Below, piece by piece: positions 22,821 through 30,337 of a DNA stretch of 64,000 nt (positions within the stretch are counted from its first letter, which is position 1; each line of letters begins with the position of its first letter). Both the position numbers and the translations under genes were made by a program. The notes beneath the pieces are model-generated. The model was not told the DNA's origin, made no database searches, and was given only the letters and a program-made list of their open reading frames with translations. The stretch is from Oscillospiraceae bacterium (GTDB lineage Bacteria > Bacillota > Clostridia > Oscillospirales > Oscillospiraceae), in NCBI GenBank assembly GCA_031261745.1, contig JAISJC010000083.1, positions 22,772 to 86,771 on the forward strand. The letters are read 5' to 3'.

Positions 22821-23615
22821 CTATTCCTCCCGTTTTAAGTGCCGAAACCTTTTTGCGTCGTTTTCCATAGTTTCAAACGTAATCGGCAGATTTGCCATAA
22901 GCACGTCGTTGAAGTCCTGCACATACTTCTTGACAATCTCAAAGCCGTATGCCTTGCGCCCGAGTAGTTCCGCGCAATACAGCGTCATTCCGCTGCCCGC
23001 GCAGGGGTCAATCACCACATCGCCTATATCGGTGAACGTCGTTATCAGTTTGTTAATGACGTGTTTCGACTTCTGCGTCGGGTGCAGCTTCGGCGTTTCG
23101 TTGTCGCGTACATAGTCAATGCAGTTGAACACCATTTCGCCGCCATTCCGAAACTTCGGCAGCTTGTCCCGATAAAGCAGTACGGCGTATTCGCAGTTCC
23201 CAACCACTTTCATATTCGCTTTCAGTACTTGCGCCGACCAGTTTTTACGAAAGACGAGGTTTATGTAGTGACCGAAACCGTACTTTTTCCCTTGCTCTAT
23301 CAGCATAAACTGTTGTTCAAATTCGCAGAACACTATCATACAGCCCGCGTCGGACTTGCTTTTCGGCTCCGGTTTCAACATACGATTTGCGAAGTGCATA
23401 AACTCCGCGATGTTAAAGTTGCTGTCGGTGTTAAAGAATTGTTTACCCGCGAACTCGCTCTTGCCGTTTGCGTTATCGCCGTCCTTGTACCACTTCGGGT
23501 TGCTTGCGTACGCGTTTATACCCAAATTAAAGGGGATGTCCGCGATGATGAGCTGCGCCTTGGGGATTTGATAGGTTTTGAAGTTTTGGAAACTATCGTG
23601 AAACAGTTCAGCCAT
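22821..23615 (-). CDS. DNA methyltransferase, amino-MTase (N6-A or N4-C), beta-class motif order
   Basis: 264 aa. Motif IV-like IIADIPFN lies near the N-terminus and motif I VIDPCAGSGMT near the C-terminus. Confidence 0.75.
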   Translation of the reverse strand: MAELFHDSFQNFKTYQIPKAQLIIADIPFNLGINAYASNPKWYKDGDNANGKSEFAGKQFFNTDSNFNIAEFMHFANRMLKPEPKSKSDAGCMIVFCEFEQQFMLIEQGKKYGFGHYINLVFRKNWSAQVLKANMKVVGNCEYAVLLYRDKLPKFRNGGEMVFNCIDYVRDNETPKLHPTQKSKHVINKLITTFTDIGDVVIDPCAGSGMTLYCAELLGRKAYGFEIVKKYVQDFNDVLMANLPITFETMENDAKRFRHLKREE

Positions 23616-26587: not shown

Positions 26588-26759
26588 TTTGCCCTCCCTT
26601 TTTGTAGAGGTTCTCTAACACCTTCAAGCATAGTTGCAGAGCCTCCGTGCGCGTGAACCCCTGCGCGAGAAATGCTTTCATATAGGCTCCGAGTACTTCG
26701 CTAACGACTCCGATACCGTCAAGGATCCCTCTGATTTTCCCGTTTTCGTAGTCCGTCAT
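26559..26759 (-). CDS. Hypothetical small protein
   Basis: 66 aa ORF with a 4-nt overlap onto the upstream methylase ORF. Confidence 0.4.
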   Translation of the reverse strand: MTDYENGKIRGILDGIGVVSEVLGAYMKAFLAQGFTRTEALQLCLKVLENLYKKGGQNENRPNPYD

Positions 26760-27328
26760 CCCAACATCTCCCTAAATATCGCTTCGAGTATGTCCACGAC
26801 TATGGAATTTCCCGCTTGCTTGTAGAGCTGCGAATTGCTGTTGACCGCCGCTGCCTTGTCGAAGTCCTCGTCCAAAAAGCCCATAAGTCGCCACGTTTCT
26901 CGCGGGGTGAGTTTGCGTATTCGCAATGGCGGTTCGATTACCACATTGTCCTTTTGCACAGTCGTCACCGCGTTACTCGTGCCGCCCGGCTTAATCTCTA
27001 ACATCTGCTGCGTCGGTTCACCCGCGTTACGGCTTGTCGGGTCGTCGGGGTTGCGCCCGCGAATCGCGCCAATCGTCGGCTCCGCAACAAAGTTGTTGTT
27101 TTGCCACTTGCCGCCCGCCGTCAGCGTTGGACTTTGCTCGTAATTGACGCTCCCCGCGTTGAAGCCGTGCGGGCGGTTTATGATAACGGGTTCGACAATT
27201 TTGATTTCTTGATTGCCGCCGCCCTGTGTATGTATGGTTGGAGAAATATAATCGGCATCGTAAACCCGGCGGGATTGCTCTATCATTTTTGAATACCCCC
27301 CCCCGTTAGCATTCCGACACATCGGCAC
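26756..27328 (-). CDS. C5-MTase C-terminal part (TRD motifs, motifs IX and X)
   Basis: Motifs ISPTIHTQGGG, SPTLTAGG, RKLTPRETWRLMGF, GNSIVV. Start is GTG 27328 or ATG 27322, overlapping the middle frame by 23 nt. Confidence 0.65.
   Translation of the reverse strand: MPMCRNANGGGYSKMIEQSRRVYDADYISPTIHTQGGGNQEIKIVEPVIINRPHGFNAGSVNYEQSPTLTAGGKWQNNNFVAEPTIGAIRGRNPDDPTSRNAGEPTQQMLEIKPGGTSNAVTTVQKDNVVIEPPLRIRKLTPRETWRLMGFLDEDFDKAAAVNSNSQLYKQAGNSIVVDILEAIFREMLG
27296..27304 (-). repeat. Homopolymeric G9 tract inside the C-terminal MTase ORF
   Basis: Counted directly: C at 27296-27304, read as Gly-Gly-Gly. Confidence 0.95.
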
Positions 27329-27520
27329 TTGTTATGACTACCATAGGGATGTGCTTGTAGTCCGTCGCACTCAAACATTGCGAGATACCTCCAACTTTCA
27401 TAACGTCACCACTTTGATGCGGCTTCCCGTCGCGGCTAATATTGCCGCCTATTTCCACTCTCGGCGACGATGTCCCACATATGGCGGTCAACGCTTCCGC
27501 GTCCGCCGCTGCGGACTGTT

Positions 27521-28261
27521 TTAGAAATCCCCCCCCCCCGCATTATCGCGTAGGGTAGCAATCAGCTTGTCGGCAGCTTCACCGGTGAGGTAATACTTCT
27601 CGTCAACGTGTTCCTCAAGTACATCTTTGAGCCGTCGTTCAAGCGGTATCGGTTCGGGAAAGTCGTAATAATAGCTGCCAAGCCACGACGCCATAAATAT
27701 CCTTTCGCGGTTCTGCGGCACTCCGTAATCGCAAGCATTAAGGACTTGATATTCGTTCGTGTACCCTTTGGATTCAAGGAATCGGCACCACTCGGAAAAC
27801 TCGTCAATATTTTTCGGCGACAACACGTCCGCCACGTTCTCCATAAGTAGGATTTGCGGTAACTCCGCGCACTCGGATAGCAGACGTTCGACTTCCCACA
27901 GCAGACTTGACGCGGTGCCGCTGTCGCGGCTCATACCCTCCATTTTGCCGGCCTTTGAAATCGAGGTGCAGGGATACGAATATGTCAGTATGTAGCAGCA
28001 ATCCTCGGTGCGCTCAATGCCCAAGTCCTCGCCGCGCCACTTCGTTACATCGGACGGCTCCCACGCGGTGCCGTGAACCGCGTTATAGGAATTAACCGCA
28101 AATCTATCAATCTCGCAGAGGCGATAATGTTCAAACGGAACACCGAGGTTGCGGGGAGCCATTGCCTGTGAGCCGATACCGCCGAACAGCTCAATCAGTC
28201 GGATGGGCTTGCCAATCCGCAGCGGCGACTCACCGTCAAAGAAACTTATCTGATGCGCCAC
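27521..28261 (-). CDS. C5-MTase N-terminal part (motifs I-VIII), terminated just after the G11 tract
   Basis: GTG 28261 lies one nt after the rusA stop, with SD GAGGGGAG. Motifs LFGGIGS, YPCTSIS, ENV, QNRERIF. Ends ...NAGGGDF*. Confidence 0.7.
   Translation of the reverse strand: MAHQISFFDGESPLRIGKPIRLIELFGGIGSQAMAPRNLGVPFEHYRLCEIDRFAVNSYNAVHGTAWEPSDVTKWRGEDLGIERTEDCCYILTYSYPCTSISKAGKMEGMSRDSGTASSLLWEVERLLSECAELPQILLMENVADVLSPKNIDEFSEWCRFLESKGYTNEYQVLNACDYGVPQNRERIFMASWLGSYYYDFPEPIPLERRLKDVLEEHVDEKYYLTGEAADKLIATLRDNAGGGDF
27529..27539 (-). repeat. Homopolymeric G11 tract (C11 on the plus strand) inside the C5-MTase
   Basis: Counted directly: C at 27529-27539. The frame switches here. Confidence 0.95.
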
Positions 28262-29098: not shown

Positions 29099-29197
29099 AA
29101 GGGGCGGCGGGAATTGAACCCGCTCTTCCGGCACTAATCACGGCGTGCATTGAAGCTGCCGTTTATCTCCGACGCTCTTCCTTTGAGCTACGCCCCC
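29099..29197 (-). tRNA. Aberrant tRNA-like gene: canonical acceptor, D and T arms, but a 45-nt extended helix in place of the anticodon arm
   Basis: Hand fold of the minus strand, 5' to 3'. Acceptor GGGGGCG, then TA, then D-arm GCTC-AAAGGAA-GAGC. A 45-nt imperfect hairpin tipped by CUUCAAU follows, then AAGA. T-arm is GCGGG-TTCAATT-CCCGC and the 3' acceptor strand is CGCCCCT. No CCA is encoded. Confidence 0.5.
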
Positions 29198-29472: not shown

Positions 29473-29676
29473 TTAATCTTTGTTTGCCTTGAACGCTTCG
29501 CGGTATGCCCTGTCCGAGTAAGCGTATTTCTTGCATAACGGCTTACTTTGTCGGAGAAGCTGTTTCGAGTACACGCACTCGCCCGTTGTTCGCGGCATAT
29601 TATTCAGCGATTGGCTATATCTCTTGAAGTGTTTGCAGCCGCCGCAGGTATACGGCTTATAGGACAGATACGCCAT
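29473..29676 (-). CDS. Small Cys-rich protein
   Basis: ATG 29676 lies 6 nt after the G11 tract; begins MAYLSYKPYTCGGCKHF... Confidence 0.45.
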   Translation of the reverse strand: MAYLSYKPYTCGGCKHFKRYSQSLNNMPRTTGECVYSKQLLRQSKPLCKKYAYSDRAYREAFKANKD

Positions 29677-30337
29677 CAATTACCCCCCCCCCCGCAGGGG
29701 TAACAACCCACACATCGCGGTTCGAGGTGACAGCGAAGCAGTCCTTGTCATTGTCGAACGCAATATCAACCATCGCGTCGCCGACACCCCTATCCTCGAC
29801 GACGTATTCCCCGAGTCCGTCTATGTAAATCACCGTGCCGAATGGGAGGTCTTTCATAGCCACGGTGCGCCCAACCGTCACCTGTACGCCGCTTTTGGTG
29901 ATTCCGTCAGCTTTTTTCTTTCCGACCTGCTTCGGGTCAGTCCAGTTATACCCGACGATTTTGTATTCGCCGAGATAAGTCATTCCCTCGCGGTACACGC
30001 CCCAGTCCTCCTCGACACGCTGATTATAGGCATCAATGCCGCGTCGCGCGTCTTCCGCTGTCAGCGTTCGTGGTTCCGGCTCCTCCGGCGTGGGTTCTAC
30101 TTGCTCGGGTGACGGCGTAAATGTCACGATCGGCGCGACAGTCGTTGCAACTGCGGGGCTTTCGTACTTGACCGTAACTTGCTCCGTCGGCGCAATCGAC
30201 GGTTCCGGCTCCCTCACGTCCTTGTGCTGCGTCGTCAAAGCCGCTGCCGCTATTGCGACGATGCAGCAAAATACGACTCCGACAAACTGTGAGTCGGCAC
30301 GTTTGCGCCCTGTGTAGGGCTTTGTCTTTCGTTTCAT
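29657..30337 (-). CDS. Membrane-anchored 3D-domain (MltA/YocH-type) protein
   Basis: 226 aa. N-terminal TM segment VGVVFCCIVAIAAAAL, a Pro/Glu-rich linker, and a C-terminal GRTVAMKDLPFGTVIYIDGLGEYVVEDRG pattern. Confidence 0.6.
   Translation of the reverse strand: MKRKTKPYTGRKRADSQFVGVVFCCIVAIAAAALTTQHKDVREPEPSIAPTEQVTVKYESPAVATTVAPIVTFTPSPEQVEPTPEEPEPRTLTAEDARRGIDAYNQRVEEDWGVYREGMTYLGEYKIVGYNWTDPKQVGKKKADGITKSGVQVTVGRTVAMKDLPFGTVIYIDGLGEYVVEDRGVGDAMVDIAFDNDKDCFAVTSNRDVWVVTPAGGGVIDGVSVL
29683..29693 (-). repeat. Homopolymeric G11 tract at the 3' end of the 3D-domain gene and the SD position of the next gene
   Basis: Counted directly: C at 29683-29693. Confidence 0.95.

Follow-up and report, generated by a model that had tools for sequence, protein, structure and literature searches.

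A probable split, multispecific phage cytosine-5 methyltransferase whose recognition modules may be selected by hypermutable repeats through three reading frames

The multispecific DNA (cytosine-5) methyltransferases (C5-methylases) of Bacillus phages are single polypeptides with their recognition modules in one reading frame and without repeats, and the phase-variable methylases known so far are mainly adenine methylases that bacterial pathogens switch ON and OFF. Two other lines of work bear on the locus described here. M.AquI and M.EcoHK31I are natural two-chain C5-methylases, and engineered fragment pairs of C5-methylases that are split in the proximal variable region are active as well (PMC3404938). 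Repeat-driven phase-variable methylases are documented (PMC13076061; PMC4889913), as are polyG tracts in the receptor-binding proteins of Campylobacter phages and contingency loci in T2/T4 (PMC12633550; Sorensen 2021); Bordetella phage BPP-1 also has a polyG tract in its methylase gene, which has been mentioned without analysis (PMC12633550). Here, we analyze a 64,000-nucleotide stretch (the window, in which all coordinates below are given) of a 101.6-kb contig (JAISJC010000083.1, assembly GCA_031261745.1) from an Oscillospiraceae metagenome-assembled genome. A minus-strand C5-methylase locus of a prophage in this window holds a tract of 11 G residues (G11) at 27529-27539 and a tract of nine (G9) at 27296-27304. 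On balance, the locus probably encodes an M.AquI-like, two-subunit, multispecific phage C5-methylase whose specificity is set by hypermutable repeats, with G11 as a reversible three-way selector.

The locus resembles M.AquI and M.EcoHK31I in that an alpha open reading frame (ORF) carries motifs I to VIII, a beta ORF carries the rest of the variable region together with motifs IX and X, the two ORFs abut or overlap, and the protein is divided within the proximal variable region (PMC3404938); this resemblance is architectural. However, those enzymes have one specificity, are host encoded, and are repeat-free, whereas here there are serial modules in beta, alternative modules for alpha, and repeats at the split. 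Like the enzymes of the Bacillus phages SPR, phi3T, rho11s, and SPbeta, the enzyme is phage-borne, has no partner nuclease in view, and has serial short modules between motifs VIII and IX; unlike the SPbeta group, it is split rather than a single polypeptide, and its modules lie in different frames behind a repeat. With phasevarions (Type III mod, Type IIG cj0031, and the polyG tract in NgoAV hsdS), it shares intragenic repeats with units that are not multiples of 3 nt, a predicted reversible change of the methylome, and, at the level of its family, length polymorphism among close relatives, but the phasevarion enzymes are adenine methylases of cellular restriction systems that mostly switch ON and OFF, whereas here a phage C5 enzyme would use three frames for module selection. 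As in known hypermutable phage tracts, phage-borne slippery runs would produce population diversity; those tracts lie in receptor-binding or other genes, whereas the one described here would be a module selector that uses three frames and is conserved. Phase variation of methylases, C5-methylases made of two chains, phage methylases with several specificities, and hypermutable phage tracts are each known already. A literature search, with most subscription journals outside its coverage, returned no account of repeats that use three frames to choose the modules of a split phage C5-methylase; the three-frame selector seems to be undescribed, although the incomplete coverage makes this weak evidence.

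The locus comprises the following features, including the alternative frames of the region between alpha and beta and their target-recognition domains (TRDs).
27521..28261, minus strand: alpha ORF with a GTG start, 246 aa, the catalytic large-domain part with motifs I, IV, VI, and VIII.
27529..27539, minus strand: simple sequence repeat 1 (SSR1), G11, 45 nt past the end of the catalytic domain (..VDEKYYLT); predicted to select the reading frame of the alpha tail.
27436..27531, minus strand: frame T1 (reached with G10 or G13), TRD1 ISKTVRSGGRGSVDRHMWDIVAE, then SGNRRQY and a stop at 27436.
27306..27530, minus strand: frame T2 (reached with G9 or G12), a 22-aa non-homologous linker that overlaps TRD1, then TRD2 PRVEIGGNISRDGKPHQSGDVMKVGGISQCLSATDYKHIPMVV and a stop at 27306.
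27388..27392, minus strand: candidate ribosome-binding site GGAGG, inferred from its place 9 nt upstream of ATG 27378 (context aaagttggaggtatctcgca followed by ATG).
27283..27378, minus strand: 5' part of a long beta ORF (MFECDGLQAHPYGSHNKCRCVGMLTGGG..), truncated under G9 (..GGGIQK*).
26756..27328, minus strand: beta ORF as sequenced, three recognition modules and motifs IX and X.
27296..27304, minus strand: SSR2, G9, within the first recognition module of beta and 9 nt upstream of ATG 27286.

Together, the two ORFs would make up one C5-methylase. The alpha ORF matches Pfam PF00145 (1e-40) over profile positions 2-211, the beta ORF (27328-26756) matches the same profile (5e-13) over positions 222-322, and PDB matches of alpha include chains of M.HhaI and M.HaeIII. 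Across the locus, the motifs follow the canonical order I, IV, VI, VIII, IX, X of DNA (cytosine-5) methyltransferases, with LFGGIGS at 28189-28169, YPCTSIS at 27976-27956, ENV at 27841-27833, and QNRERIF at 27715-27695 in alpha, and motif IX RKLTPRETWRLMGF at 26917-26876 and motif X GNSIVV at 26812-26795 in beta. Both NCBI and JGI annotate alpha as a 246-aa DNA (cytosine-5-)-methyltransferase (MDR0905802.1), and NCBI lists a methylase gene of its own for each half, one of 246 aa and the other of 188 aa. The motifs, the G11 and G9 tracts, and the ORFs that an original prediction had listed for this DNA were all recovered at the coordinates it gave.

We compared the 250 nt between the ORFs with 120 intact homologues (~50% identity, 400-800 aa, with a varying number of modules) and found real methylase sequence in each of the three frames of this middle region. 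In the present state, with G11 (frame S), alpha stops right after DF; its product ends ..RDNAGGGDF*, with the stop codon at 27523-27521, two codons past the tract. Frame T1 contains TRD1 (GGISKTVRSGGRGSVDRHMWDIVAE), which the original prediction had overlooked. This is the best-conserved module, with 84% identity to the intact homologues, and it lies in the same relative frame in the related loci L038, L040, and L041; alpha with TRD1 (G10) is predicted to have 274 aa. The second frame of the original prediction corresponds to frame T2: it opens in the tract, runs to 27306, and is predicted to be fused to the alpha frame with G12 or G9, as had been proposed. Its TRD2 corresponds to the ..ATTLMARDYKG.. 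module found in other lineages. In total, five module-like segments of the locus each align to modules of intact multi-module homologues, and the predicted products of a change in tract length are three distinct alpha tails and two forms of beta. We dropped a reading in which four frame changes are frameshift mutations, with slippage contexts considered for the two that lie away from the G tracts (GAGAG near 27460, ACAAG near 27330), because in the family these sites are where distinct conserved frames and ORFs end or begin. Stop-codon reassignment was rejected since the parts occupy different frames, and a polyG artifact that joins unrelated DNA was rejected since the flanks continue the same gene.

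The third ORF of the original prediction is beta, which overlaps the T2 frame by 23 nt and carries motifs IX and X as well as G9, as had been described. Its recognition modules lie at 27271-27188, 27151-27086, and 27064-26939, and its length depends on the start: 190 aa from GTG 27328, 188 aa from ATG 27322 (NCBI), and 176 aa from ATG 27286 (JGI/Logan). By its position, SSR2 could also act as the ribosome-binding site for ATG 27286. Upstream of G9, the homologous reading KCRCVGMLTGGG uses a different frame, which opens at ATG 27378 and had also been overlooked; KCRCVGMLTGG of this long beta aligns to RCRCIGTLTGG of homologue P0001. With G9, the long beta frame ends after 31 codons, while G10 would extend it to 26756, giving 207 aa. 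In L041, which belongs to a lineage with a polyG tract, beta starts at the homologous place (MSRVVGILCGEKW..), GGAGG is present, and beta is an intact 198-aa ORF. Many relatives have tracts of G7-G10 in the same part of beta, often out of frame.

Distant relatives abound, and IMG/VR alone contributes 579 confirmed stretches. Among 110 related loci, 81 contain a simple repeat with a unit that is not a multiple of 3 nt at 42-82 nt past the catalytic domain (..VDEKYYL.). At this SSR1 site, polyG tracts (G8-G11) are present in the window, L006, L019-L023, L038, L040, and L041, and other loci have (GACA)3-18, (AGAGC)4-15, (AGCAG)5-10, (ACAGACGG)5-6, (GACAGGCA)4, (GA)16-18, (GT)8, or (ACGA)10. The repeat density at the site is 3.8 per kb versus 0.17 per kb in flanking DNA, and further G7-G10 tracts lie downstream in the module region of relatives. 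The S/T1/T2 layout is present in 63 of the 70 loci carrying a repeat at the SSR1 site. In these, frame S stops within 10 codons (usually 1-7), frame T1 runs for ~25-50 codons with recognition-module homology from residue two and then stops, and frame T2 usually runs for ~75-85 codons, in which a non-homologous linker overlapping the T1 module is followed by a second module and a stop. The cyclic order S, T1, T2 is common to all but five of the 63 loci regardless of repeat type, and the window conforms to it. Among natural contigs, the catalytic domain reads into T2 in 26, into S in 22, and into T1 in 15. It is about an even call whether these loci form a widespread phage C5-methylase family in which the repeat is a three-position frame selector (no module, module A, or module B) and tracts in beta toggle further modules, with one phage genotype continually producing a combinatorial range of methylation specificities.

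Repeat length varies between close relatives. Although they come from different samples, L019 and L020 are 100% identical over 2.6 kb but for one G in one tract, and in L021, which is 96.6% identical to both, five of six internal indels fall at the five G tracts, some of them by 2 nt. The pairs L068/L077, L057/L070, L052/L056, and L064/L084 differ internally at repeats only; the differences among these four pairs are (GA)18 versus 16, (GACA)4 versus 5, (ACAGACGG)5 versus 6, and (GACA)7 versus 6 together with a G-tract change. L057 is in T2 and L070 in T1, one repeat unit apart. In the lineage most like the window, L038 (G9) and L040 (G8) differ in frame state. In the largest (GACA)n sublineage, frame state tracks tract length with a period of three units, such that tracts of 19, 31, 43, and 55 nt correspond to T2, those of 23 and 35 nt to T1, and those of 27, 39, and 51 nt to S.

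Several further observations were made in the relatives. A 111-nt in-frame block in beta of L038 (5150-5260; ..LAYDEQNGYVRQDGTVGTLTCDGSSPKHNNRVVEP..) is absent from the 94%-identical L040 and seems to represent the gain or loss of an entire recognition module. L019-L021 have five G8-G10 tracts in the module region (e.g., L020 3263-4418) and at least eight module-like segments across the three frames, with some stop/start overlaps (GTGATAGAATGAAC, ..VIE* / MNIPF..); past the first tract, the frame order is S, T2, T1, the reverse of that in the main clade. A clade of gut phages has a second tetranucleotide repeat, (ACTT)4, (TTAC)3-5, or (TACT)3-6, that encodes TYLLTY just before motif IV (PC), ~425 nt before the end of the catalytic domain. 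It is present in L045, L048, L049, L058, L062, L064, and many others, as well as in L007, L009, and L024, and is absent from the window; its copy number varies between contigs (e.g., TACT x6 in L007 and x3 in L009), and it is possibly a true ON/OFF switch of the catalytic subunit. In L098 (3900-3990), a G9 tract flanked by a direct duplication of ~23 nt (CAGATGAACATCTTTGATTACAT) lies at the junction of an upstream methylase-like gene and the start of the C5-methylase.

The original prediction had also suggested an alpha/beta split, and this proved to be the norm in the family: among loci having both halves, 74 of 83 are split and 9 are fused. The split state co-occurs with the repeat (63/11 versus 3/6; Fisher P = 0.002, a value inflated by shared ancestry). 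In more than 25 loci, beta begins at an ATG placed immediately behind an in-frame TGA and preceded by GGAG at a distance of 7 nt (..aacGGAGtgattgaATG..), and this TGA-ATG start overlaps the end of the T2 frame (..NGVIEWK*); such a conserved ATG and GGAG for the C-terminal ORF mark many of the split loci.

The phase variation in the original prediction is supported at the level of the family, where near-identical relatives vary at exactly the repeat position, but not as a simple gate of a gene that is currently OFF. Classical ON/OFF phase variation, in which a single functional methylase is made at one tract length and switched off at the others, would fit the repeat-length variation among close relatives, and the T2 frame does run to motif X in L048, L051, and L113 and a few fused alleles exist. 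For the window, this reading is too simple because no combination of G11 and G9 tract lengths places motifs I through X in one ORF, a point that the original prediction had also overlooked: G10 at SSR1 leads to the stop at 27436 and G12 or G9 to the stop at 27306, upstream of SSR2, so that each adds one module without reaching motifs IX and X. Moreover, the supposed OFF frame still encodes a conserved recognition module under purifying selection, the three frame states are about equally common in nature, and beta has its own conserved start. We therefore regard ON/OFF switching as an unlikely explanation of the locus.

Selection on the alternative-frame modules was assessed in the largest clade, from which 36 distinct sequences were compared for diversity at each codon position; the alignment was unfiltered, since a motif-based extraction could bias the result. 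At the first, second, and third codon positions, nucleotide diversity was 0.163, 0.142, and 0.275 for the T1 module in the T1 frame and 0.252, 0.240, and 0.438 for the T2 module in the T2 frame, while the short tail after the T1 module (0.55, 0.52, and 0.57) had no periodicity. Both alternative-frame modules of this clade therefore have signatures of purifying selection. Between L020 and L021, we counted 41 synonymous and 5 non-synonymous changes in the catalytic domain and 16 synonymous and 11 non-synonymous changes in the modules, each read in its own frame; the module region diverges by 2.5% and the catalytic domain by 6.1%. The pattern in the module region is unlike neutral decay.

These data bear on the possibility that the locus is a decaying pseudogene, i.e., a former full-length multispecific methylase that is gathering frameshifts, with the G tracts incidental. 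Such decay would account for four frame changes within 250 nt relative to intact homologues and for two window tracts that are both in non-productive states. We find it improbable to the same degree as ON/OFF switching. The layout persists in ~70 loci whose lineages are just 38-66% identical to one another and differ in repeat type. In relatives, purifying selection is seen on the catalytic domain as well as on the two out-of-frame modules, and the module region diverges less than the catalytic domain. In the window, alpha, T1, T2, and beta are all free of internal stop codons.

G runs of the length found here are not a chance feature of the window. Runs of at least nine G gave 7 overlapping matches in three tracts versus 0.14 expected per window, and none of 100 dinucleotide shuffles reached 7; apart from the three tracts, the 64-kb window has no run of G or C longer than 6. 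The third tract, a G11 at 29683-29693, had been overlooked in the original prediction. It falls at the 3' end of a gene with a 3D domain (29657-30337, minus strand), 6 nt upstream of the ATG of a 67-aa CxxC ORF (29473-29676). With G10, G11, or G12, the 3D-domain product would have 218, 226, or 220 aa, respectively, with only the last 0-8 residues affected, and this tract may mainly be a ribosome-binding site for the downstream CxxC ORF.

A Logan assembly of SRR14710919 is 100% identical to the window over 16559-37241, including G11, G9, and G11, although it may derive from the same reads as the GenBank contig. This assembly splits into two contigs at 27164-27189 (26-nt overlap), inside beta and ~110 nt downstream of G9; a drop in coverage and a strain variant are candidate causes of the break.

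Long G runs are error-prone on most sequencing platforms, and a homopolymer sequencing or assembly error, which the original prediction had named as the trivial alternative, would leave an ordinary, fixed two-gene methylase of alpha with TRD1 and full-length beta if the true tracts were all G10. With G10, the products would indeed be tidiest: alpha would have 274 aa and include TRD1, beta would have 207 aa, and the 3D-domain gene would end ..AGGG*. Against this, the two assemblies agree on the lengths, albeit possibly from the same reads; the remaining genes of the window are intact, and its remaining homopolymers are unremarkable; differences between related contigs amount to 2 nt at G tracts and to whole 4-, 5-, or 8-nt units at the same site, which is no signature of error; and the selector architecture would stand even with wrong lengths. 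Since the repeat position is conserved across lineages with different repeat types and a second assembler agrees on the lengths, plain error is unlikely as a general explanation, and for the window we give miscalled G10 tracts slightly less weight than the two preceding alternatives. Recoding at the RNA or ribosome level, i.e., transcriptional slippage or programmed frameshifting on G runs in a fixed DNA sequence, is the least probable alternative: all three downstream frames are meaningful, G runs allow re-pairing of tRNA-Gly, and G-rich runs resemble frameshift-stimulating ribosome-binding sites, but length differences are directly seen in the DNA of near-identical contigs and the repeats of many lineages have units of four, five, or eight nucleotides and are classical substrates of DNA slippage rather than ribosomal slip sites, although recoding could coexist with DNA slippage.

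For the split enzyme with a three-way selector, we propose the following mechanism. Alpha (28261-27521) would supply catalytic motifs I to VIII, and beta (ending at 26756), translated from its own start, would supply three recognition modules and motifs IX and X. A slipped-strand change in length at G11 would pick the alpha tail, i.e., an immediate stop (G11), TRD1 (G10/G13), or the linker with TRD2 (G9/G12), while G9 would decide between a long beta from ATG 27378 with a complete first module (G10) and a shorter form from ATG 27322 or 27286. In its present state, the window would then encode a tailless alpha and a beta that could start only at 27322 or 27286. We infer that alpha and beta assemble and that the tail modules are active on alpha. 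A phage population would in this way hold several reversible methylation repertoires, which may serve as a bet hedge between escape from restriction enzymes and avoidance of methylation-dependent nucleases.

Several points weigh against this proposal. Both window tracts were sequenced in their least productive state, which also fits an inactivated gene, and length variation of the window's own tracts is assumed by analogy with the relatives. Besides the same contig and the identical Logan assembly, no relative closer than ~65% protein identity was found in a search that covered INPHARED, IMG/VR, GTDB genomes, JGI metagenomes, a set of 5.8 billion proteins, and 90% protein clusters; an exact look-up of a 283-aa version of the ORF gave no match since gene callers use the GTG start. 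The selection tests concern lineages other than that of the window and are affected by shared ancestry. The window's beta is without the clean TGA-ATG/GGAG start of other lineages, the T2 frame already runs for 73 nt before the candidate start ATG 27378, and the bases of GGAGG at 27388..27392 double as VGG codons of TRD2. In L048, L051, and L113, continuation of T2 to motif X gives one full-length protein, and in some lineages the switch may thus be closer to ON/OFF. Finally, a recognition module on the catalytic subunit is not known to work with motifs IX and X on another module-bearing chain.

The locus lies in the early/replication module of the prophage. Upstream of it are SbcC-like, RecT, DnaB_2, and RusA genes, and downstream are a second N6/N4 methylase gene and HNH, YopX, and ParB genes, with portal and tail sheath genes farther along. 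The original assignment to a prophage C5-methylase with multiple TRDs is borne out, the portal, tail sheath, RecT, and RusA genes being placed around it. The second methylase gene (22821-23615, minus strand, 264 aa), in the same prophage module, is of another class (PF01555, N6_N4_Mtase), and the gene with a ParB_N domain lies farther downstream of it. An Rfam tRNA match at 29099-29197 (minus strand; 47 bits versus a gathering score of 29) is placed in a 370-nt gap upstream of a 132-aa ORF. Its anticodon stem-loop has 37 nt versus 9 in the model, i.e., a 28-nt insertion, and ARAGORN makes no call here; it could be an intron-bearing or disrupted phage tRNA.

The split-selector design would explain why such genes look frameshifted in most viral contigs, where annotation treats them as two unrelated fragments, and it would offer natural parts of a split modular C5-methylase for engineering. 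If our reading is correct, gut and rumen phages merge phase variation with multispecificity, such that the repeat chooses a module instead of disabling the enzyme. This would provide cheap and reversible variation of protective methylation between hosts that differ in restriction and methylation-dependent defences.

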